The notes under the pieces were generated by a model that saw nothing but the letters and a program-made list of their open reading frames with translations, searched no databases and was not told where the DNA came from. From a virus: a DNA stretch of 11,035 nucleotides. Positions 602 through 9,708 of the stretch are shown piece after piece (positions within the stretch are counted from its first letter, which is position 1; each line of letters begins with the position of its first letter). The translations under genes and the position numbers were made by a program. Where the stretch lies: the UHGV virus genome UHGV-0227640, one strand, 5' to 3'.

Positions 602-1747
602 TTATTTTTGTTTTATGGTAAATGAAATAACATTGTCAGAATGAATCATATCTGATTCTTTAAATCGTGTAATTGCAGATAACTCATTTAAGGGAAGAGC
701 AAAGATATCAGTTAACTCAGTTACCTTTATGATTGAATGCTTATCAAGAAGTAAAAGTAACTTATTAAGTAACTCAGGCTCTTCTTTTGGGATTGCATCA
801 TCTAACGGCTCCCTACGATGGAATGGCGCTAATTGCTTAAATATATAGCTTTTCTGATTATCGCTGATTAACTTAAGGCTATGACTCCTCATGGCAATAC
901 TACCGATAGATGTAATCCAACGTAGTTTTAATCGTTCTAACGCTGATAAATTTGGACTATAAAATTCACGCCCGAAAGTGGTGGCTGGCATTAAAAAGCT
1001 GGAGGCAAAATAATCGGCCTGCAACTCCACCAGGTCGAATAATTCTTTATCATTCAGGTAGTCATCCTCCACTGCCCTATGCATAATTAAATGGCCAAGT
1101 TCATGAGCAAGACTAAATCGCATGCGAACAGCCGTCTTCGAGCTATCTAACATAATTAAAGGCCGCCCATTATGCCAGAACGAAAAGGCATCAACTTTCT
1201 CACCAGAAGGTAAATGAGAAACCACGATTCCTTTATTTTCAACAAGTCTAGTTAAATTGAGTATTGGACCATCACCTAACCCCCAAAAACGCCTTAATTG
1301 GGTGGACATATCCTCAATATCAGATAGAGACAGAACCTCAAAATCAATAATATCGAATTCAGGCAGAACCACATCTGGTAATTGAGCATATTTTAGACAT
1401 TCATCCAATATTAATGCCGCCCAACGCCCACGTGTTTTCCCTGTAACTCGAGCCTTTTTGGTCGCAGTTGAACGACTTCTAAAATGAATCGCCCCCTCCA
1501 GAGATGGAGAAGCACTGGAGGCTAAGAAAAATCGTTCTGGAAATCCTAACACCTTGGCTATTGCAGAAAGTGTATCAGCAGAGGGAGACTTCAACCCCTT
1601 CTCAAATGACGAAATAGCTTGTCTTGAAATATTGAGCACTCTGGCAAGTTCAGCCATCGTCAACCCTTTTGCCTCTCTTGCCTCCTCAAGGCGACGAGGA
1701 TTAAACGATTTATCAGTAAATGGTGTTTGTGCGATATTCATGCTCAT
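602..1747 (-). CDS. XRE-family HTH fused to ImmA/IrrE-type (COG2856 / M78-like) zinc metallopeptidase; candidate antitoxin/regulator
   Basis: 381-aa ORF. N-terminal XRE HTH (GLTMAELARVLNISRQAISSFEKGLKSP). HEXXH motif HELGHLIMH at about residue 232, as in the ImmA/IrrE family. Start ATG overlaps the upstream stop (ATGA at 1744-1747). Terminator follows. Confidence 0.85.
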   Translation of the reverse strand: MSMNIAQTPFTDKSFNPRRLEEAREAKGLTMAELARVLNISRQAISSFEKGLKSPSADTLSAIAKVLGFPERFFLASSASPSLEGAIHFRSRSTATKKARVTGKTRGRWAALILDECLKYAQLPDVVLPEFDIIDFEVLSLSDIEDMSTQLRRFWGLGDGPILNLTRLVENKGIVVSHLPSGEKVDAFSFWHNGRPLIMLDSSKTAVRMRFSLAHELGHLIMHRAVEDDYLNDKELFDLVELQADYFASSFLMPATTFGREFYSPNLSALERLKLRWITSIGSIAMRSHSLKLISDNQKSYIFKQLAPFHRREPLDDAIPKEEPELLNKLLLLLDKHSIIKVTELTDIFALPLNELSAITRFKESDMIHSDNVISFTIKQK

Positions 1748-2358
1748 GATTGCTGTGATTTAATTATTTGTTCGGTAAGAATCTTGATTTTATCTTCAAT
1801 CTCAGAATCCACATTTTCTGCTTCAACTTCTACCATCGTCATAATTGGTAAAGACTCAGTATAAAGAATCCCGTAATTATCCGAAGAAGGAACAGTTAAA
1901 TTCAGTTTGGACAAGTGCTGATTACTGCCATCATGTAACATATAAACATGTCCACCAGACGCTCTCCCATCCAGGGAGTCGGCATTTTCATCCCCAAAAT
2001 TCAATTCATAATTTTGATTAGCGTAAACAGCTCTATACAATGCCTGCTTAGGAAGTGGCGCATTACCCGATAAATGATGTGCCGTCATTTTCCAGTTGTT
2101 CGAGTGAATCGCAATGTGTTTACAATTTTTAGCAGCATTGCTACCGACTTCAAAATCCAGCCCCACACGCTTAGCCGCATTCTCAAGCAATGCATCGGCA
2201 TAAAACCAGCGCAAATATGACTGTGCTTGAGCCCAAAAAGAACCAAACTCTTTTGCCTTCATATGCGAATGAAGATAAGCCTGTGCTAACGCGATCGAAA
2301 GCTCTTTGCGGCACTCCTTGTCATATGCTTCTAACAACTGTTGAGATAAATTCTGCAT
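1744..2358 (-). CDS. Hypothetical 204-aa protein, first gene of the operon; candidate toxin/effector partner of the HTH-peptidase
   Basis: 204-aa ORF. AAGGA about 12 nt upstream of ATG at 2358. Stop overlaps start of downstream gene. No transmembrane segment or catalytic motif I recognise (His/Asn-rich centre HIAIHSNNW...HHLSGN...GGHVYMLHDGSNQH, acidic C-terminus). Visibly more A+T-rich than the phage core genes. Confidence 0.75.
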   Translation of the reverse strand: MQNLSQQLLEAYDKECRKELSIALAQAYLHSHMKAKEFGSFWAQAQSYLRWFYADALLENAAKRVGLDFEVGSNAAKNCKHIAIHSNNWKMTAHHLSGNAPLPKQALYRAVYANQNYELNFGDENADSLDGRASGGHVYMLHDGSNQHLSKLNLTVPSSDNYGILYTESLPIMTMVEVEAENVDSEIEDKIKILTEQIIKSQQS

Positions 2359-2524: not shown

Positions 2525-2680
2525 TTACTCCTCAGGTTCGTAAGCTGTGAAGACAGCGACCTCCGTCTGGCCGGTTCGGATTCGTACCTCGCAGAGGTCT
2601 TTCCTCGTTACCAGTGCCGTCACTATGACGGTTAAACAGATGACGATCAGGGCGATTAACATCGCCTTTTGCTGCTTCAT
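2525..2680 (-). CDS. hokD: Hok/Gef-family type I toxin (small membrane-depolarising peptide), HokD/RelF-like
   Basis: Not in ORF track (51 aa). Manual translation of minus strand 2680->2525: MKQQKAMLIALIVICLTVIVTALVTRKDLCEVRIRTGQTEVAVFTAYEPEE. AAGGAG 9 nt upstream. From memory this matches HokD (RelF) of E. coli K-12. No relB/relE upstream. Confidence 0.8.
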   Translation of the reverse strand: MKQQKAMLIALIVICLTVIVTALVTRKDLCEVRIRTGQTEVAVFTAYEPEE

Positions 2681-3118: not shown

Positions 3119-3288
3119 TATTCCTCCTACAATCAATGTGCAATTACATTTAAACACACCTCAATTTGGCCGGACATATAAATATCTAAACCAGAAAAAA
3201 TCACTTACATAGCGTTACAAACTCTTTAGTCTAAATATTCATCGTAAAACATTCCCCATACTTATCAGCCCGTTCTGCGCCAGGTAGC

Positions 3289-3605
3289 TCATTGCCTTAT
3301 CTGGGAATCTGTAATCAGGTTTCCGGATGCTGGTGGATTTTCGCGTTTTAGTTGTTCATAAAAGTGCACAGCTTTAACCAGTTCTTCTGATGTAACCGGG
3401 ACTGGCGGGGCAGTGAATAAGGCCTGAATTTCATAGTTCGGCCTGTCGTTACAATCCTCTTTTTTCGGTACATATTTCCAGTCACCAGACCACTACTTCC
3501 CCTGAAAGTCCGTAACGCCTTTTTTTTCACGTAGCGATATCGCCATGCCACTGTTTTTGCTTGCCCCGCCGTTTCATGCCCTTCCTGATAATTAACCTCG
3601 CTCAT
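3289..3605 (-). pseudogene. Decayed Ea22-like paralog (frameshift plus in-frame stop)
   Basis: 5' end (GTG/ATG at 3605, MSEVNYQ...) is DNA-similar to the 5' ends of the Ea22-like genes at 6470 and 7092. After about 20 codons the listed frame turns implausible (basic, low complexity), while the +1 frame carries protein-like WSGDWKYVPKKEDCNDRPNYEIQALFTAPPVPVTSEELVKAVHFYEQLKRENPPASGNLITDSQIRQ ending at 3289, preceded by TAG. Homopolymer runs (T8 at 3520-3527, T6 at 3470-3475) are likely slippage sites. Confidence 0.4.
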
Positions 3606-3778
3606 TCATCGCCCCACTCATCACAATATGCTTCGACCGGAGTTTTTCCTGCTTCATAATCATCACGCCATGCTTCAGCATCAGCAGCACTGCCACCACG
3701 TAACTCTGCATAGTCCATTAACAGTTCATGCCATGCTTCAAAACTGACGTTGTATTTAGTTGAACCAAAATCAGCCAT
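3602..3778 (-). CDS. Small acidic protein (58 aa), hypothetical
   Basis: Manual translation: MADFGSTKYNVSFEAWHELLMDYAELRGGSAADAEAWRDDYEAGKTPVEAYCDEWGDE. GAGG about 10 nt upstream. Start overlaps stop of the 3771-3953 gene and its stop overlaps the start at 3605 (ATGA). Below ORF-track cutoff. Confidence 0.5.
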   Translation of the reverse strand: MADFGSTKYNVSFEAWHELLMDYAELRGGSAADAEAWRDDYEAGKTPVEAYCDEWGDE

Positions 3779-3953
3779 TTTGCTCTTCCTCTTCGTCTTT
3801 TATTTCGTGATATGAGTAATTGCAGTAGTTAAAGAAAATATCTTTTGCTTCGTCATGTATTTCATCAGGCGTCGCATCATCATCCACTTCGAATTCATCC
3901 TCGAAATCTCCACCGGCTATTCCCGTTTCAATAATTATTTTAAACTTTCGCAT
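3771..3953 (-). CDS. Small highly acidic protein (60 aa), hypothetical; possible DNA-mimic
   Basis: ORF-track ORF MRKFKIIIETGIAGGDFEDEFEVDDDATPDEIHDEAKDIFFNYCNYSYHEIKDEEEEQNG; about 20 of 60 residues are Asp/Glu. Preceded by a structured leader (hairpins at 3961-3976 and 3991-4009). Confidence 0.55.
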   Translation of the reverse strand: MRKFKIIIETGIAGGDFEDEFEVDDDATPDEIHDEAKDIFFNYCNYSYHEIKDEEEEQNG

Positions 3954-4046
3954 TTAACTACCGCCCTTTCGGGCGGCCTCCTGATGTTCTGAGGGTGCAG
4001 AAATCCCTCCGGTTAAGGATTAAATTTTTAACAGAGCTAAATTTAA

Positions 4047-4403
4047 TTATTCAGTTCTGGATTTTGTCGCCCTGCGTATCCGCGCTTTCGCGTTACGCTC
4101 AATCTGAATTAGCTTTTCTATATTTTTTCGCCTTTCCTGTTCCTCCTGGCGCAATAGCCTTACATCATCTGCCAGTCTGGTTTCTCTTTTCGCCACAGAG
4201 AGCATCCAGTCAAATGGTTCCACAACTGCACCGCAGATTTTACAGCGGACCTGACGCTCTTTTTCGTCAACCCGGACAGAGGCGTGATGACAATATGGTC
4301 TTTCCGATGGCTCATAAAGAAAATTAACCTGATTACGAGGGTCATCCTCTTTTACCGGAAATAAAACGATATTGCTTAACTCATCCTCTGGTTTTATTTC
4401 CAT
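4047..4403 (-). CDS. Hypothetical protein (118 aa) with zinc-ribbon-like Cys/His cluster and basic coiled-coil tail
   Basis: Internal start MEIKPEDE... at 4403 with AAGGAGAGGAG upstream; the ORF-track extension to 4460 lacks an SD. PYCHH...CKICG motif. C-terminus rich in R/K/E (RRKNIEKLIQIERNAKARIRRATKSRTE). Confidence 0.6.
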   Translation of the reverse strand: MEIKPEDELSNIVLFPVKEDDPRNQVNFLYEPSERPYCHHASVRVDEKERQVRCKICGAVVEPFDWMLSVAKRETRLADDVRLLRQEEQERRKNIEKLIQIERNAKARIRRATKSRTE

Positions 4404-4524
4404 GCTCCTCTCCTTTGATGCGAATGCCAGCGGTAATTGAAGCCTGATAGCTAATTTCACTCACAGTACCGCCTCCTGAAAATTTAATGAACAATTCAAT
4501 ACGTTCTTTGGTAATAGTGGTCAT
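4381..4524 (-). pseudogene. Chimeric 47-codon ORF / deletion scar of an Ea22-like gene
   Basis: MTTITKERIELFIKFSGGGTVSEISYQASITAGIRIKGEEHGNKTRG. The first 21 bp match the 5' end of the gene at 5207 (19/21). The middle contains the TTTTCAGGAGG module. Then an Ea22-like N-terminus (VSEISYQA) is fused directly to the Ea22 C-terminal codons (AGIRIKGE; DNA CCGCTGGCATTCGCATCAAAGGAGAG identical to 5726-5751). Confidence 0.3.
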
Positions 4525-4534
4525 GTGTTACTCC

Positions 4535-4798
4535 TTAACCCGCAGTGCTTTCAACTGATGAGGGGAACAAAATCTTTTCATCAAACCCTGCATTCATATC
4601 ATGAACAGCAACACACCAATCCATCGACGAACGATTATCAAGAGCCTCCATGATTTCATCCATGCGGCGCAGGTCATACAGGTAAATGCTTTTATCGCCA
4701 ATGGTGTAAAAACCAATTTTTTTCGGTGATGGGCAGCGATCAAGAACGTCCTGTAATTCGTTCAACCATGCCCGTTCTTTTTTTGTTAAAGTTGCCAT
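4535..4798 (-). CDS. Hypothetical phage protein (87 aa)
   Basis: Internal start MATLTKKERAWLNELQDVL... at 4798 with AAGGAGAG SD; upstream stop at 4800-4802. The ORF-track extension to 4858 overlaps the upstream gene. Confidence 0.6.
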   Translation of the reverse strand: MATLTKKERAWLNELQDVLDRCPSPKKIGFYTIGDKSIYLYDLRRMDEIMEALDNRSSMDWCVAVHDMNAGFDEKILFPSSVESTAG

Positions 4799-4799
4799 A

Positions 4800-5207
4800 T
4801 CACTCTCCTTTCCCATGAAGCATAGCGGCGCGGCAGGCGTTCCATATTTCGGCAGCAATATCGCGCTCGCTATCGGTTAATTTGTACGTGGAAACATAGC
4901 CAGAGAGCATTTCTACGTTTTCCGGAGTTGCTTCTTCCGGCACTATCGGCGCTGGAGGGGCGGCAAATAGATATCCGCCAAAGTCAGGAAGCTCTCCAAT
5001 GGCCTGTACGAACTTTTGTTTGCCTACGTCAACTCCTAATGGGTAATGAGCTATAATCTTTGCCACCGGCTCTGCTTCCAGCGATACCAGTGCAATTCGT
5101 GCCAGTTCTTCCGCTTCTTCTGCTGGCAGTACAACGTTGCTACCCGGTCCGTATGTTTCGCGCCACTGCTTGATTGTCAGCAGTCGCCCTTTGGTAATAG
5201 TGATCAT
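4800..5207 (-). CDS. Hypothetical phage protein (135 aa)
   Basis: ORF-track ORF MITITKGRLLTIKQW...; ATGA overlap with the upstream gene at 5204-5207. Confidence 0.65.
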   Translation of the reverse strand: MITITKGRLLTIKQWRETYGPGSNVVLPAEEAEELARIALVSLEAEPVAKIIAHYPLGVDVGKQKFVQAIGELPDFGGYLFAAPPAPIVPEEATPENVEMLSGYVSTYKLTDSERDIAAEIWNACRAAMLHGKGE

Positions 5208-5719
5208 GCCGCGTTTCCTTCTTTCTTATTAACAATCACACCGTCATATATTTCATTAAGGTGCCCTCTCAACTCCATGCGCCTTAATGCAGATAACATG
5301 TAATCGCATTCAACCTGCTTATTCCCAGTAAATGGCTTATCGTCAGGATTACCCCAACAGCAATTACCCCTGGGCCATCCATGTACTTTCCGTACTCTTC
5401 CGTTAACAACGTGAAGTAATCCCCAGCCGGGAGGTAAATCCTCAACTGAAATAATTTCCGGCTCACTAATAAAGAATCGCCAGTCGCCCATGCCAAGTGA
5501 GGGATTTTTACGGAAACGCTTTTTTCTATCTGCCAACAAGTCAGCACGAGAACACTTCGCCTCTATCAGGCATGATGCTGAATTTCTGAATCCCATAGCA
5601 TCTGGCTGTTCTCCGGTACTGGTTACAGCAACAAAGCGGTCATGAAAGCAAACCTTGAACCCGTTGCGCTTAAGGAACTTGTACGCAATCTGACAGAGTT
5701 CGCGGTGTGTTAACGCCAT
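5204..5719 (-). CDS. Hypothetical phage protein (171 aa), possible PD-(D/E)xK-type nuclease fold
   Basis: ORF-track ORF. Pattern ...QPDAMGF...CLIEAKCSRADL resembles the D...ExK catalytic signature. Assignment tentative. Confidence 0.65.
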   Translation of the reverse strand: MALTHRELCQIAYKFLKRNGFKVCFHDRFVAVTSTGEQPDAMGFRNSASCLIEAKCSRADLLADRKKRFRKNPSLGMGDWRFFISEPEIISVEDLPPGWGLLHVVNGRVRKVHGWPRGNCCWGNPDDKPFTGNKQVECDYMLSALRRMELRGHLNEIYDGVIVNKKEGNAA

Positions 5720-5720
5720 A

Positions 5721-6470
5721 TCACTCTCCTTTGATGCGAATGCCAGCGGCGCGGATTGCAGCGATGACTTCAGAAACTTTGTATGCCATTACCGTTTGGT
5801 AATCATCGTGAAAATCTGTTCGATGAAGCATGCTGCTACGTTCCGGGAGCGATATTTCCCGAGCATCCAGTTCCTTAACGCGTTCCTCCAGTTCGTAGAC
5901 CCTGCATTGTTCTCTATCATCAATCAGATATAACCCAAGACATTCGCTTTCTACCCAACCGCCAAAATCATGATCGTAACGCTCACATGAAAACTCACCG
6001 TCACCGTCCTTTGTTGGAATGGTGTAACTATCTAATGGGCCACCATATGTCGGCACATTCCCCAATGTTGGATGCTCAATCCACATGAAAAATGCACGTC
6101 CGGTTATTGGGCAAATATCTGGCCGCCATTGGTTACGAACAGCCTTGGTTTCGGATAATTCTTCAGCGTGTTGTTTTACTTCCTCAAGCTCAACTCTCAG
6201 CTTCCCTACCGTTAGCGCAATATCCTCGTTCTCCTGGTCGCGGCGTTTGATGTATTGCTGGTTCCTTTCCCGTTCATCCAGTAGTGCCAGCACGGTTTCT
6301 GGTCCGGTCAGAAATTTGAAGGCATTGAGCGCATCAATATCCACACCGTAATCTTTAAGTTCCTGTTCACTTAACAAATCATCATCAGTTGGCAACATTA
6401 ACAGGCGTTCCATTGCTGGAATTGCACGTTCTGCTGCCTCACGCAGTGCCTGGTAATTAATTTCGCTCAC
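5721..6470 (-). CDS. Ea22-like (ead/Ea22 family) early protein, 249 aa
   Basis: GTG start at 6470 with AAGGAGG upstream. N-terminus MSEINYQALREAAERA is characteristic of lambdoid Ea22-like proteins as I recall them. Coiled-coil-like middle. C-terminus ...AGIRIKGE. Confidence 0.7.
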   Translation of the reverse strand: MSEINYQALREAAERAIPAMERLLMLPTDDDLLSEQELKDYGVDIDALNAFKFLTGPETVLALLDERERNQQYIKRRDQENEDIALTVGKLRVELEEVKQHAEELSETKAVRNQWRPDICPITGRAFFMWIEHPTLGNVPTYGGPLDSYTIPTKDGDGEFSCERYDHDFGGWVESECLGLYLIDDREQCRVYELEERVKELDAREISLPERSSMLHRTDFHDDYQTVMAYKVSEVIAAIRAAGIRIKGE

Positions 6471-6910
6471 TGGTTGCCTCCTTTGCGAAGCTCTGCGGCT
6501 AAATACTCCAACGCCATTACCGGGACGCCAACAAGCACAGTTCCTTTAAACTTCTTATGCAGGTGCTCGATAGCTGTATCCACGCCCTGCGCCCGTACTT
6601 CAGCCAGGAAAGCATCGGTGGCCGGAGTTTCAGGAATCCGTCTCCTCATCAGTTCTATTGCATGATTGAACCCGAAATCTTCAGCAAGAGATACGTCATC
6701 CATATTGTCATTGTCGTCCTCAATATCCCGTGGTTCTGGAATTGCAGACTTTATTACCGCATTCTCCGCCGCCAGCGCCGCGCACTTGGCCTCAAGAGCG
6801 GCAACCACTTCCTGATGGTCTTTGTACTTAACGTATGAGCCGGAGATGTCATCACCTTCGGTGTTTAGCCATGCGTCATTGCAATTCACTGCGTAGGTTC
6901 TGATGCTCAT
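6467..6910 (-). CDS. Hypothetical phage protein (147 aa); possibly the C-terminal part of a split Ea22-like gene
   Basis: Start MSIRTYAVNCND... at 6910 with GGGAGAG upstream; ATGA overlap with the stop of the 61-aa ORF. The ORF-track extension to 6967 is read in the frame overlapping that ORF. Confidence 0.55.
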   Translation of the reverse strand: MSIRTYAVNCNDAWLNTEGDDISGSYVKYKDHQEVVAALEAKCAALAAENAVIKSAIPEPRDIEDDNDNMDDVSLAEDFGFNHAIELMRRRIPETPATDAFLAEVRAQGVDTAIEHLHKKFKGTVLVGVPVMALEYLAAELRKGGNQ

Positions 6911-7092
6911 GTTGATGCTCTCCCGCCCCTGACAGACGCCAGGCCAGTCAATAAAGTATCCGCACAATGCCTACCCTCAGACGTGCGCGCAGGATAAATG
7001 CCGTTATGACCCGGCAAAATATATGCTACCCATTCATCTTGCGTTGCCTGTTCCGCCGCCTCGCGCAGTGCCTGATAGTCAATCTTGCTCAC
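6907..7092 (-). CDS. Ea22-like N-terminal fragment (61 aa); truncated paralog or 5' part of a frameshifted gene spanning 6467-7092
   Basis: GTG start at 7092. MSKIDYQALREAAEQATQDEW matches the N-terminus of the 249-aa Ea22-like protein. DNA at 7040-7092 is about 80% identical to 6421-6470. Confidence 0.45.
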   Translation of the reverse strand: MSKIDYQALREAAEQATQDEWVAYILPGHNGIYPARTSEGRHCADTLLTGLASVRGGRAST

Positions 7093-7573
7093 TGGTCGCC
7101 TCCTTCATAAAAATAATCCAGTGGGTCTTGTCACCCTTTCCTGTTCGTTGACCGATAACAGGCTTTCTGTCGGTCAGTGCCAATATCTGGCGAACAGGTA
7201 TTTGCGTTTCATTCCATTTAAAAATCAGAACGCTGTATGGCCGCAACACACGAAAGGCTTCTTTAAATCCCTGCCGCAAATCATCACGCCAGGTATCTTT
7301 ATTCAGCCGTCCATATTTCTTTCCCATCCAGGCGTTATCACCAACACGCTCAAGATGCGGAGGGTCGAATACAACAACCGGAAACGATGCGTCTGCAAAT
7401 GGTAATGCACGAAAATCTGCTATCAGGTCAGGGCTAATTATCAGTCTTCGTCCATCACATAATGTGTGCTCTTCCTTTCTGATATCGCTAAATATCGCCC
7501 GGTCGTCATTCTTATCGAACCAGAACATGCGGCTGCCACAGCACATATCAAGAATGGTTGCCGGTGCACTCAC
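7079..7573 (-). CDS. Small SAM-dependent DNA methyltransferase (orphan; N6-adenine or N4-cytosine type)
   Basis: 164-aa ORF. Motif I-like ILDMCCGSRMFWFD near the N-terminus and motif IV-like VVVFDPPH. GTG start overlapping the upstream stop (GTGA). No adjacent restriction enzyme gene. Confidence 0.6.
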   Translation of the reverse strand: MSAPATILDMCCGSRMFWFDKNDDRAIFSDIRKEEHTLCDGRRLIISPDLIADFRALPFADASFPVVVFDPPHLERVGDNAWMGKKYGRLNKDTWRDDLRQGFKEAFRVLRPYSVLIFKWNETQIPVRQILALTDRKPVIGQRTGKGDKTHWIIFMKEATSEQD

Positions 7574-7992
7574 TGCGCTACCTCCTGAAAATTACCCTGA
7601 TAAAACGACAATATGCGCTGCATAACTTCGCTCTTCCGGCACTCGCGACAGATTATGTTCTGACGCCTGTCGTAGCGGCGTATTTCGCCGTCTGGTAATA
7701 GCCAGATAAGGTCCGGATCAACCACAGATGGTTTCTTCAGCTTTGCCCTTGAGAGTTTTTTGCGGGCGTTTTGCCAGTCCTTGCGCGCCTGCTCAGACGG
7801 GAATACTCCGTAACCGGAATTGTAAACATCACCACTGGCGGCCAGCTCCATGCATAAACGACCGACAGACGCATGACTGACACCAATTTCATCCGATAAC
7901 TGCCGAATCGTGCCTCGTCCGTTAAGGCGTACGAATTCCACGATCAGCCCTTTAATTTTTTCCCGCTCTTCTTGTGTAAAAACTTTTGCCAC
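7570..7992 (-). CDS. HTH (winged-helix-like) DNA-binding protein, 140 aa
   Basis: ORF-track ORF. GTG start with GGAGG 5 nt upstream. HTH-like segment GTIRQLSDEIGVSHASVGRLCMELA. Confidence 0.6.
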   Translation of the reverse strand: MAKVFTQEEREKIKGLIVEFVRLNGRGTIRQLSDEIGVSHASVGRLCMELAASGDVYNSGYGVFPSEQARKDWQNARKKLSRAKLKKPSVVDPDLIWLLPDGEIRRYDRRQNIICRECRKSEVMQRILSFYQGNFQEVAQ

Positions 7993-8032: not shown

Positions 8033-8995
8033 TTACCCCCTGAAGCCCGGCGGAATTTCAGTGTCCGGTTCAGAAATGTGATTCACGCAACGCTGCGCAG
8101 GCGAACGCCCCAGGCGGATAACCAGTTCATCCCATTTTTCCCGGAGTTTTGCCGGACTCATGATGTTTTTTACCCAGAACGAATCCCGCTGGAGACGCCC
8201 AAACATTTCACAAATTTGTCTGTGAGTTCTGCCATCCAGCATCCGCATTGTGCGAACGTCATTGGCCCATGCTGTCCAGTTGGGTTCTTTCGGTCTAGTG
8301 ATCTCGCCATCATAGCTGGCCGCCTGCTCGTAAAGACTCACGATTCGTCCCCAGATCCACTGTGCGCACACCAAATCTTCCTGACTTCCCCACTGGCGTT
8401 TTTTCGCACTGAACACAACCGCGTCAGGGTGTCGGGTTAAAAAATCCTGTTCAGCCGTCTGCGGGTCCGGTTGCGAAGCGTCCGGACAAGAAGATCTTTT
8501 ATCTGACGGATCAGGTTTTAATACTGACGGATCGGGGTCAATCATCGGCCCCCTAATCGGCAGTTTTTTATCAACAGTTGATCCATCAAAATTTGACGGG
8601 TCAACCGTTGAGGGGTCAATATTTGACGGGTCAACTGTTAACGGGTCATTTTTTGCCGGGCTAATTTTTCTTTTCGGTTTATATGACTCACGCGCCGCCG
8701 CCGCAGCTGCTTCGAGTTTTTCCACATTAAGCCGATAGATATTGCTTACATTACGCCCACCGACCTTACGCTCTTCCTTCGTCAGCCAGCCCTCTTTCGC
8801 CAGTTCTGCAATAGCCGATTTCACTGTGGATTCACTTCTTGCACCGATCTGACGCCGGATAGTTTCAATGGCAGGCCATGACACGCCCTCGTCATTGCTG
8901 TAGTCTGCAAGACGGGCCATAACCGCCACCCTGGATAAGATCATGCCGGTGAAGGCGCACCCTTCCCAGACAAGACCATGAAGCTTGCTGCTCAT
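8033..8995 (-). CDS. Phage replication initiator (lambda O-like): N-terminal winged-helix DNA-binding domain, repetitive linker, C-terminal domain
   Basis: N-terminus ...MARLADYSNDEGVSWPAIETIRRQIGARSESTVKSAIAELAKEGWLTKEER. Linker with repeats DPLTVDPSNIDPSTVDPSNFDGSTVD encoded by the DNA iterons. ATG at 8995 with a G-rich SD preferred over GTG at 9010. Confidence 0.75.
   Translation of the reverse strand: MSSKLHGLVWEGCAFTGMILSRVAVMARLADYSNDEGVSWPAIETIRRQIGARSESTVKSAIAELAKEGWLTKEERKVGGRNVSNIYRLNVEKLEAAAAAARESYKPKRKISPAKNDPLTVDPSNIDPSTVDPSNFDGSTVDKKLPIRGPMIDPDPSVLKPDPSDKRSSCPDASQPDPQTAEQDFLTRHPDAVVFSAKKRQWGSQEDLVCAQWIWGRIVSLYEQAASYDGEITRPKEPNWTAWANDVRTMRMLDGRTHRQICEMFGRLQRDSFWVKNIMSPAKLREKWDELVIRLGRSPAQRCVNHISEPDTEIPPGFRG
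8500..8690. repeat. Iteron array plus A+T-rich segment: putative phage origin of replication inside the initiator gene
   Basis: About six copies of TGACGG(G/A)TCA and variants at 8504, 8525, 8594, 8609, 8624 and 8638, some spaced 15 bp apart, followed by the A+T-rich stretch 8649-8685 (TTTTTTGCCGGGCTAATTTTTCTTTTCGGTTTATATG). Confidence 0.55.
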
Positions 8996-9017
8996 AAAAC
9001 CCCCGAACACCGTGCTT

Positions 9018-9443
9018 TTAGTGCATCACCACAGCATTCCCTGCCGGGCCGCCGCGATTCATCTGGTCATACAAAACAACCGCTGACGCAACAAAATCAT
9101 CGACATCCTTCACCAGCCGATCCCTCCGTTCGACGATCTCACGGTAATATTCAGAACTGTGGCTGCGCATACGGGCCACCAGCAAAGGCGGCATCGCCTT
9201 TTCGATCGCCGGTAACAGAGCCTGCATTTTTTCAACAGCATCAGGGGTGTCTTTATCCAGCCAACGGAAAATTTTCTGGGTATTACGGGCCAGGGCTTCC
9301 GGATGGCTGTCGTCATACAGTTCCGGGAACGTCATTCCCAGCTCGAAATACGCTTTGGTAATTTTCGCAGCCGGCACTTTTTCGCCGTCCGGATGCGCCC
9401 AGACATTCATCGCCATGCGGATGTGTTCATGCTTGATTTTCAT
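9018..9443 (-). CDS. YdaT-like (CII-like) regulatory protein, 141 aa
   Basis: ORF-track ORF MKIKHEHIRMAMNVWAHPDGEK.... The position (between the Cro-like and replication genes) and the N-terminus resemble E. coli Rac YdaT as I recall it. Confidence 0.6.
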   Translation of the reverse strand: MKIKHEHIRMAMNVWAHPDGEKVPAAKITKAYFELGMTFPELYDDSHPEALARNTQKIFRWLDKDTPDAVEKMQALLPAIEKAMPPLLVARMRSHSSEYYREIVERRDRLVKDVDDFVASAVVLYDQMNRGGPAGNAVVMH

Positions 9444-9708
9444 GAATCAAGCTCCTAGAAAGTGGTTGTGTTAACGTTTTGGTATCTTCCAGCTCGGGCC
9501 AAATATTCATCCAATCAAAAGGCCTTAGTTGCTGACGTGTAACTTCACCATTACTGGCTCGCTCAATAAGGACACATAACGATGCCCCTAACACTTGACC
9601 TTTACTCAATGCCTTTCTTAGATAACCGATGCTGGTACCACACTCGCATGCAAACATACGCTGTTCATCTGACGAAAGAGAATTGAGAAATATTCTTAAT
9701 TCTTCCAT
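9427..9708 (-). CDS. Cro-like / YdaS-like HTH regulator, 93 aa
   Basis: ORF-track ORF. AAGGAG 6 nt upstream of ATG at 9708. HTH-like segment CECGTSIGYLRKALSKGQVLGASLCVLIERAS. Divergent from the repressor gene. Confidence 0.7.
   Translation of the reverse strand: MEELRIFLNSLSSDEQRMFACECGTSIGYLRKALSKGQVLGASLCVLIERASNGEVTRQQLRPFDWMNIWPELEDTKTLTQPLSRSLIHENQA

Follow-up and report, generated by a model that had tools for sequence, protein, structure and literature searches.

DNA mimics are a functional class rather than a homology family and have no common fold. Their surface carboxylates are arranged in the manner of DNA phosphates, usually on an oligomer, and they bind competitively to the DNA site of a DNA-binding protein. 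Ocr (gp0.3), with about 116 aa, imitates bent B-DNA as an elongated, all-helical dimer, ArdA has about 165 aa, and T7 gp5.9 and lambda Gam are RecBCD-inhibiting DNA mimics encoded beside phage exonuclease genes. The T7 host inhibitors 5.5, 5.7, and 5.9 are located between the genes for DNA polymerase and exonuclease. Two further phage inhibitors of host proteins have about 60 residues each, namely the RNA polymerase inhibitor Gp2 of T7, whose residues Arg56 and Arg58 in the last strand are needed for polymerase binding, and the antitoxin Dmd of T4. In anti-CRISPR (Acr) loci, a small acr gene precedes an aca gene for an HTH regulator. AriAB is triggered by anti-restriction proteins of the Ocr type. 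Ocr itself is sensed by PARIS (PMC11464382).

In this study, we analyzed a stretch of phage DNA of 11,035 nucleotides (the window) with two adjacent genes for proteins of 60 and 58 aa, designated A60 and B58 in the following. A preliminary description of this DNA had proposed them as possible DNA-mimic anti-defense factors. Like Ocr and ArdA, which are two to three times larger, A60 and B58 are small, strongly acidic, and encoded by mobile elements, from which they are predicted to be expressed early.

Location of A60 and B58 in a lambdoid prophage

The window is part of a lambdoid prophage of the Rac/Qin type from Escherichia coli. Several E. coli strains, e.g., Ecol_316, have chromosomes that are 100% identical to it at positions 3300-4500, and 83% of the whole window could be matched to those genomes, at 99.2%. 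The minus strand represents the rightward (pR-type, delayed-early) lytic operon (Table 1), and A60 and B58 are placed in a nin-like accessory stretch of this unit, between the replication genes and hokD. The pair had previously been assigned to an early operon, which is correct in a broad sense; the operon is the rightward delayed-early pR unit and not the leftward early one. A search of the minus strand between positions 3200 and 4600 yielded neither a sigma-70-like promoter nor an intrinsic terminator.

Table 1. Positions of genes and translation signals in the window.
Feature	Position	Strand	Remarks
DicC/YdaS-like Cro analogue	9427-9708	-	
YdaT-like protein	9018-9443	-	
Replication-initiator-like HTH protein	8033-9010	-	
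DUF977 protein	7570-7992	-	
Orphan SAM-dependent methyltransferase	7079-7573	-	
Three Ead/Ea22-like genes	6907-7092, 6467-6967, 5721-6470	-	
Three genes beside the zinc-ribbon-like gene	5204-5719, 4800-5207, 4535-4858	-	No informative Pfam family
Zinc-ribbon-like protein (phrog_1621)	4047-4460	-	Upstream neighbor of A60; no informative Pfam family
AGGAGG	3977-3982	-	5' of A60
Hairpin, 7 bp, GC-rich, GAAA loop	3960-3977	-	Followed by 6 nt and the A60 ATG
A60, 60-aa DUF7167-family protein	3771-3953	-	ORF, composition, Pfam, PHROG
B58, 58-aa phrog_519 protein	3602-3778	-	ORF, composition, PHROG
Frameshifted Ea22-type gene	3348-3605	-	85-aa frame, pI 11, starts MSEVNYQ
hokD-like toxin gene	2525-2680	-	
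RosmerTA defense pair	602-2358		

The RosmerTA insert is missing from the closest genomes, although the A60-B58 pair is present there. An identical pair was found in the Stx2a phage ArgO145, where it is part of a leftward unit between the recT/exo/ssb genes and int and likewise has Ea22-like genes on its flanks. The usual cassette of E. coli prophages has the order zinc-ribbon protein, A60, B58, and a 171-aa Ea22-N-terminus-type gene: the zinc-ribbon gene was the same upstream neighbor in 70 of 80 IMG/VR loci, and an intact version of the 171-aa gene was located 3' of the pair in 69 of 80. RefSeq labels the frame that follows B58 in the window as 'frameshifted; internal stop' in strain Ecol_316, whose sequence is identical in this region. 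This basic ORF was considered as a partner of the acidic pair and ruled out: it is a frameshifted remnant of the 171-aa gene and therefore not a basic partner protein for A60 and B58.

Overlapping reading frames and translation signals

The two genes had been described as translationally linked, and the arrangement of their reading frames agrees with this. The stop codon of A60 and the start codon of B58 share an overlap of 8 nt (ATGGCTGA, positions 3771-3778, minus strand), and a purine-rich GAGGAAGAG stretch is located directly 5' of it; overlap and purine-rich stretch together have the appearance of a translational-coupling arrangement. The overlapping register was kept in 155 of the 157 IMG/VR loci having both genes. 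At its 3' end, B58 overlaps with the ATG of the next ORF by 4 nt (ATGA, positions 3602-3605, minus strand).

A spacer of 93 nt precedes A60. Its AGGAGG motif has a linear spacing of 23 nt to the A60 ATG, which is more than a normal Shine-Dalgarno sequence allows. The hairpin located in between was present in both the MFE and the centroid structure calculated with RNAfold. When folded, it would reduce the effective spacing between AGGAGG and ATG to about 6-7 nt and might in this way influence translation of A60. No T-run follows the hairpin, which was not called as a terminator.

Conservation and prevalence of the gene pair

The dN/dS values were 0.02-0.04 for A60 and 0.03-0.11 for B58, using as reference intact copies that differ mainly at synonymous sites. 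Because of these low values and because protein-level relatives are present in unrelated virulent phages, with identities down to 37-48%, we conclude that A60 and B58 are real genes under purifying selection. In-frame stop codons have arisen in both genes in two prophage remnants flanked by IS elements. With a required coverage of 80% or more of the 352-nt pair, a search of 5426 complete E. coli genomes recovered the pair from 1750 of them, in up to four places per genome. IMG/VR scans with either protein recovered 157 loci, every one of which encodes both; these scans returned solely near-identical copies from E. coli prophages. In E. coli lambdoid prophages, A60 and B58 are a fixed, translationally coupled pair of the delayed-early unit. 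Outside of E. coli-type prophages the two families were found apart, which led us to reject an obligate two-component system for these elements, and neither family has a neighbor that is conserved across lineages.

Acidity of A60 and B58

A60 contains 9 Asp and 11 Glu residues, and the earlier estimate of roughly one third Asp/Glu was thus accurate (20 of 60 residues, 33.3%). With only 5 Lys/Arg residues, its net charge is -15 and its pI 4.05. B58, which had also been called acidic, has 7 Asp and 8 Glu residues (15 in total, 25.9%), a net charge of -11, and a pI of 4.06. The corresponding charge densities are -0.25 and -0.19 per residue, and the two proteins rank first and second in acidity among the 19 minus-strand ORFs taken as genes within the window. 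For comparison, 14 phage or plasmid loci contained 238 ORFs of at least 100 aa, whose Asp/Glu fraction averaged 0.114 with a standard deviation of 0.051. Among the ORFs of 50-80 aa in these loci, 11 had an Asp/Glu fraction of at least 0.25, and each of these belonged to the A60 or the B58 family. Phage accessory regions often encode hypothetical proteins that are small and acidic.

The high negative net charge of a DNA mimic was also found in the relatives of both proteins: it ranged from -10 to -15 in the full-length members of the A60 family and from -6 to -13 (median -10) in 32 members of the B58 family. Conserved acidic sites of A60 are E9, E22, the D24-D26 turn, D30/E31, D38, and the glutamates of the C-terminal tail. 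At the positions D33, E35, D39, D40, E42, D53, and E54 of B58, an acidic residue is present in 27-32 of the 32 family sequences. Acidity is a trait of both families.

A60 belongs to the DUF7167 family

A60 matched the Pfam family DUF7167 (PF23768) with an E-value of 7.9e-15 and 55.1 bits (gathering cutoff 24.4). Its residues 2-53 cover positions 1-60 of the 60 profile positions, making it a full-length member, and the RefSeq name of the identical protein is 'DUF7167 family protein'. The only other Pfam match at E ≤ 0.1 was a sub-threshold one to AnkX_ins. Among the PHROGs, A60 matched phrog_1997 (E = 9e-31). The preliminary description had suggested structure prediction as a check, and neither protein was predicted to be disordered by AlphaFold2 with family alignments, the mean pLDDT being 78.6 for A60 and 87.9 for B58. 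The predicted A60 structure comprises the strands beta1 (residues 2-9) and beta2 (16-23), a helix (29-40), strand beta3 (46-51), and the acidic C-terminal tail KDEEEEQNG. A fold search against BFVD returned just uncharacterized small phage proteins for A60, none of them at E ≤ 1e-3.

Relatives of A60 were detected by tblastn in 38 phage records. They included Klebsiella lambdoid phages (70% identity), Klebsiella Guernseyvirinae (48-51%), Enterococcus Brockvirinae (about 42%), and Phapecoctavirus and the Pseudomonas phage PsgM04F (37%). The family extends over both temperate and virulent phages, with Enterobacteria, Pseudomonas, and Enterococcus as hosts; on plasmids it is rare (15 records). 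In Guernseyvirinae, the A60 homolog overlaps with the start of a gene for a DUF2800/PD-(D/E)XK nuclease and is part of the replication module. In a Klebsiella phage, a gene for the nucleotide-modification protein Nmad5 is located two genes upstream of the A60 homolog. The neighbor of the Enterococcus homolog annotated as 'exonuclease' is a DUF3850/ASCH protein. In 37P2, the label 'PD-(D/E)XK phosphodiesterase' on a 55-aa gene looks as if it was misplaced from the adjoining gene.

B58 and its relatives in phages and plasmids

No Pfam or NCBIfam family was found for B58. It matched phrog_519 (E = 2e-22) at positions 76-137 of the 143 profile positions. We considered that B58 might be the C-terminal fragment of a longer protein and rejected this, as a phmmer search of 1.84 billion representative proteins yielded only 58 clusters, nearly all of them free-standing proteins of 50-85 aa. 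One of the homolog searches was performed with an artificial, concatenated alignment of the A60 and B58 families; the matches cover one half of it, and the coverage values of this search refer to the concatenate.

B58 and its homologs of Kuttervirus, Taipeivirus, KP34-like phages, and plasmids have the signature F-x-E-W-H...GGSAADA-x-AW-R-x-DY-x-x-GKTP...A-W/Y-x-D-E-W-G in common. The residues W16, L20, A24, W37, G44, and G56 of B58 are invariant in 32 family members, and W16, W37, Y41, and W55 form a conserved Trp/Tyr core. In the AlphaFold2 model, B58 is a three-helix bundle with helices at residues 13-26, 34-42, and 47-55. On these predicted helices, acidic residues would be exposed in i/i+4 rows (E14-E18-D22-E25 and E35-D39-E42), a pattern that is suggestive but not specific.

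Relatives of B58 were present in 198 phage records. In Ackermannviridae, the gene is located just 3' of the major capsid gene, a position that looks late rather than early. In the KP34-like podovirus phiKDA1, it lies between the genes for DNA polymerase and 5'-3' exonuclease, and a further relative was found in a Klebsiella Lastavirus. Of the 561 plasmid records with B58 relatives, 516 represent conjugative plasmids. About 420 of the records showed 80-90% identity, and those inspected were IncI2 plasmids of ~60 kb. There, the B58 homolog is located downstream of repA, after the genes for a CaiF/GrlA-type regulator and a DUF1187 protein, and heads a long block of SPFH/NfeD/T4SS genes. The remaining records include large MOBH plasmids of Klebsiella and Raoultella and an Aeromonas plasmid. 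A leading-region location of the B58 homolog on plasmids was considered but not adopted, the gene being on the traI/traD side in the MOBH plasmid examined. Finally, two phage-like metagenomic contigs encode a NADAR-B58 fusion protein, a combination suggestive of a connection with DNA ADP-ribosylation or another type of DNA-targeting immunity.

The sole prior statement that we found on the function of phrog_519 is a prediction by machine learning, without experiment, in which Kuttervirus members of this group were listed as candidate anti-CRISPRs (PMC9409062). Another literature match of phrog_519 (PMC11370258) was a prefix artefact of phrog_5197, and DUF7167 and DUF1187 were not mentioned in the literature searched. 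The database names of the A60 and B58 proteins are all 'hypothetical' or 'prophage protein', and membership in DUF7167 and phrog_519 gives names but no function. In summary, A60 and B58 are unrelated, compact, strongly acidic single-domain proteins, each belonging to a scattered family of free-standing accessory proteins.

Possible functions of A60 and B58

We favor, with a probability of roughly 45%, the explanation that A60 and B58 are small acidic proteins inhibiting a basic host protein that probably binds nucleic acids. Each of them, synthesized soon upon induction or entry, would attach through its conserved acidic surface to a positively charged site, probably one for nucleic acids, and block it; the target would be a conserved protein of the bacterial host. 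The outcome would be host takeover or inhibition of a defense in the manner of T7 Gp2, Gp5.9, Ocr, or small anti-CRISPRs; DNA mimicry aimed at restriction or BREX would be a special case of this. We favor a host target because the two proteins are predicted to be folded acidic domains, have no conserved partner, occur in virulent and temperate phages as well as on conjugative plasmids, and are placed under early lytic transcription in lambdoid phages. A second reason is the repeated co-location with accessory genes for DNA modification or related to nucleotides, i.e., the orphan methyltransferase in the operon of the window, Nmad5 in the Klebsiella phage, and the NADAR domain fused to B58.

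Proteins of this size and acidity may have many other functions, and arguments from gene context are circumstantial. The main rival is a role internal to the phage or plasmid, in which A60 and B58 would serve as small regulators, chaperones, or adaptors for proteins of replication, recombination, or assembly. The positions of the genes are consistent with such a role: the pair follows the replication genes and lies among Ea22-like genes, the Guernseyvirinae homologs of A60 overlap with the start of the nuclease gene in the replication module, and the B58 homologs are located after the major capsid gene in Ackermannviridae and at the head of the SPFH/NfeD/T4SS block downstream of repA in IncI2 plasmids. 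However, no neighbor is conserved across lineages, so that there is no obvious cognate partner, and the 'exonuclease' next to the Enterococcus homolog is really a DUF3850/ASCH protein. Furthermore, the same 58-aa protein family is common to elements whose replication and morphogenesis systems are unrelated, namely podoviruses, myoviruses, lambdoid prophages, and plasmids, and we regard an internal role as doubtful.

The explanation suggested in the preliminary description, that one or both of A60 and B58 are DNA mimics, appears unlikely in its specific form, in which their carboxylates would, like those of Ocr and ArdA, imitate the phosphate backbone and fill the DNA-binding groove of type I restriction-modification (R-M), BREX, or similar systems. 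It is consistent with the very high charge density conserved across both families and with the acidic i/i+4 rows on the predicted B58 helices, and the presence of A60 relatives in phages of Gram-positive and Gram-negative hosts would fit a generic target. On the other hand, neither protein showed similarity to Ocr, ArdA, or another named family at E ≤ 0.1, and the predicted folds differ from those of Ocr and ArdA. The folded cores have about 45-50 residues and would cover few base pairs unless oligomerized, and no link to R-M or BREX was found in the contexts examined.

It is even less probable that A60 and B58 are prophage morons aiding the lysogen, be it by superinfection exclusion, an influence on host physiology, or control of hokD or RosmerTA. 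Although the pair is very common in E. coli chromosomes and the window has a hokD-like toxin gene and the RosmerTA pair nearby, RosmerTA is absent from the closest genomes carrying A60 and B58, and homologs are abundant in strictly virulent phages. In addition, no own promoter was detected, which argues that the genes are embedded in a repressed lytic operon. The idea that they are chance ORFs or decaying remnants without function, as the in-frame stops in copies from IS-flanked prophage remnants might suggest, is effectively refuted by the dN/dS values of intact copies, the conservation of the proteins in unrelated phages, and the confident fold predictions for both.

If either A60 or B58 proves to be a counter-defense factor, this would provide a function for DUF7167 and for a so far un-named family without a Pfam entry. 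The carriers comprise about one third of the complete E. coli genomes, Stx2a-converting phages, hundreds of conjugative plasmids, and candidate therapeutic phages (Kuttervirus, Taipeivirus, Enterococcus Brockvirinae), and a counter-defense function would bear on the host range in phage therapy and on plasmid spread. More far-reaching, and improbable, is that one or both are founders of new-fold families of nucleic-acid-mimicking or broad-spectrum counter-defense inhibitors common to virulent phages, E. coli prophages, and conjugative plasmids, in which case B58 would help plasmids and phages to establish themselves in defense-proficient hosts. Overall, A60 and B58 are reasonable but ordinary anti-defense candidates, distinguished by their unusually wide spread across types of mobile elements.

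Comparison with known inhibitors

Searches of Pfam, PHROGs, NCBIfam, and PADLOC gave no match of A60 or B58 to Ocr (PF08684), ArdA (PF07275), or other named families, and no PDB sequence was matched at E ≤ 0.1. Unlike Ocr and ArdA, the two proteins are single domains of 58-60 aa, A60 with a predicted beta-beta-alpha-beta fold and B58 with a predicted bundle of three helices, and the all-helical, elongated dimer of Ocr was found for neither of them. Membership in the Ocr or ArdA family was therefore rejected on the grounds of sequence, predicted fold, and size. The fold matches of A60 and B58 were weak and generic.

Acr proteins gave no sequence match to A60 or B58 in Pfam, PHROGs, and the PDB either. 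In contrast to Acr loci, B58 is followed in the window by the frameshifted Ea22-type gene; an HTH_17 protein was found after the B58 homolog only in the Klebsiella Lastavirus ZX1.

With its predicted three-stranded sheet and one helix in about 60 aa, A60 resembles T7 Gp2, and its topology is similar to those of both Gp2 (PDB 2LMC/2WNM) and T4 Dmd (PDB 5HY3). Profile comparison of A60 with Gp2 and Dmd gave no homology signal; for Gp2, whose query sequence was checked against PDB 2WNM, hhalign reported an E-value of 0.27 and a probability of 0.2%. A comparison of the sequences by eye showed that, unlike Gp2, A60 has YSYHEI at the position of the FEVTRVRP strand, and the arginines of this strand are absent.

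Compared to T7 gp5.9 and lambda Gam, A60 and B58 have no similarity in sequence or fold, and the likeness is one of gene position, in a single lineage each. A Gam/gp5.9-like reading of the 'exonuclease' adjacency of A60 was retained for Klebsiella Guernseyvirinae only, given the DUF3850/ASCH identity of the Enterococcus neighbor. In Guernseyvirinae, the replication module is T7-like and has the A60 homolog directly upstream of its nuclease gene, and in phiKDA1 the B58 homolog lies between the polymerase and exonuclease genes, the position of the T7 host inhibitors 5.5, 5.7, and 5.9.

The surroundings of the acidic pair in the window

The acidic pair consists of the 60-aa protein A60 and the 58-aa protein B58, and the features that accompany it or its homologues are listed in the table below.

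Features of the window and of loci with homologues of A60 or B58
Feature	Location	Strand	Characteristics
RosmerTA-type two-gene defence or toxin-antitoxin pair	window 602-2358	-	PADLOC matches
hokD-like type I toxin gene	window 2525-2680	-	Pfam HOK_GEF, E=1.2e-23; phrog_251
85-aa ORF, pI 11	window 3348-3605	-	N-terminus MSEVNYQ
Spacer upstream of A60	window 3954-4046, especially 3960-3982	-	sequence
171-aa protein	window 5204-5719	-	phrog_9263/phrog_631; no Pfam family
B58 homologue and HTH_17 gene	L014 2992-3455		Klebsiella Lastavirus vB_KpnP_ZX1
P0163, 218 aa	L017 1512-2168; L018 1733-2389		NADAR domain (PF08719) and C-terminal B58-family domain
Trio of CaiF/GrlA-type regulator, DUF1187 and B58 homologue	L007 8348-9177		~62-kb IncI2 plasmid pJSMCR1_4
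WP_171270140.1, B58-family protein, two copies annotated	L016 2703-2861 and 3998-4156		Aeromonas media plasmid pAeme3
Acidic-pair copies	L021 and L022 1501-1852		E. coli ET490 and N1286; 88-89% identity
DUF7167 gene, 55 aa	L010 3001-3168		Klebsiella phage 37P2
DUF3850/ASCH-domain protein	L004 3471-4013		Enterococcus phage MDA2

In the spacer upstream of A60, an AGGAGG motif precedes a hairpin (7-bp stem, GAAA loop), after which 6 nt lead to the ATG start codon. Judged from this order of elements, the spacer could represent a structure-bridged Shine-Dalgarno sequence, an arrangement present in phage T4 gene 38. When read in frame, this spacer gives ...SEHQEAARKGGS and a stop codon, and it is the leftover C-terminus of an upstream gene. 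In some strains (proteins P0144, P0146, and P0147), the upstream gene is fused in frame to A60, with GAA replacing TAA.

The basic 85-aa ORF has an N-terminus like that of two Ea22-family genes (5721-6470 and 6907-7092). A frameshift has made it a pseudogene of a 171-aa gene, which is intact in most related prophages, and the ORF is so extremely basic only because it is read out of frame. The hokD-like gene lies downstream of this pair of acidic genes, at a distance of approximately 900 nt. In the protein encoded at 5204-5719, inspection by eye revealed a D...E-x-K pattern (DAMGF...IEAKCSRAD) like those of PD-(D/E)XK nucleases.

The RosmerTA pair is formed by two overlapping ORFs. The ORF 602-1747(-) encodes a 381-aa protein with HTH_3 and Peptidase_M78/ImmA-IrrE domains and matched PADLOC RmrA (E=5.5e-102), and the 204-aa ORF 1744-2358(-), which has no Pfam family, matched RmrT (E=7.5e-10). 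Since coverage of the window in the closest complete genomes is only 83% (we infer which part is uncovered), and since E. coli Ecol_316 carries rem/DUF968/RusA after hokD in place of this pair, the RosmerTA genes are probably an insertion in the window's strain.

Homologues of the acidic pair in phages, plasmids and remnants

The B58 homologue of plasmid pJSMCR1_4 (86% identity) belongs to a trio that lies roughly 1 kb away from repA, before the SPFH/NfeD and T4SS genes, and is conserved in this and about 420 similar plasmid records. In some plasmid records, DUF1187 and the B58 homologue were called as a single fused protein of 127 aa (P0145). On pAeme3, the two copies of WP_171270140.1 are spaced 1.1 kb apart within an array of small hypothetical genes that all point in one direction, with integrase genes at both ends.

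The B58-family domain of the NADAR protein P0163 shares 69% identity with B58. P0163 is encoded on two independent metagenomic contigs that, by their gene content (dUTPase/DCD, Rv2179c-like exonuclease), look like a virulent phage.

The acidic-pair copies of ET490 and N1286 are situated within IS-flanked prophage remnants. In both strains, A60 has an identical in-frame stop at codon 37 and B58 carries a stop and an ATG-to-GTG change, which suggests that these copies represent one old decaying remnant in common.

Two labels in public records are probable annotation slips: the DUF7167 gene of 37P2 is named 'PD-(D/E)XK phosphodiesterase', the function of a neighbouring gene, and the 'exonuclease' of MDA2 is the DUF3850/ASCH-domain protein.

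In vB_KpnP_ZX1, a gene with a WDGH domain lies upstream of the B58 homologue, which is followed after 93 nt by the gene for a 68-aa HTH_17 DNA-binding protein. This order of B58 homologue and HTH_17 gene, found only in the Lastavirus lineage, resembles the acr-aca layout.
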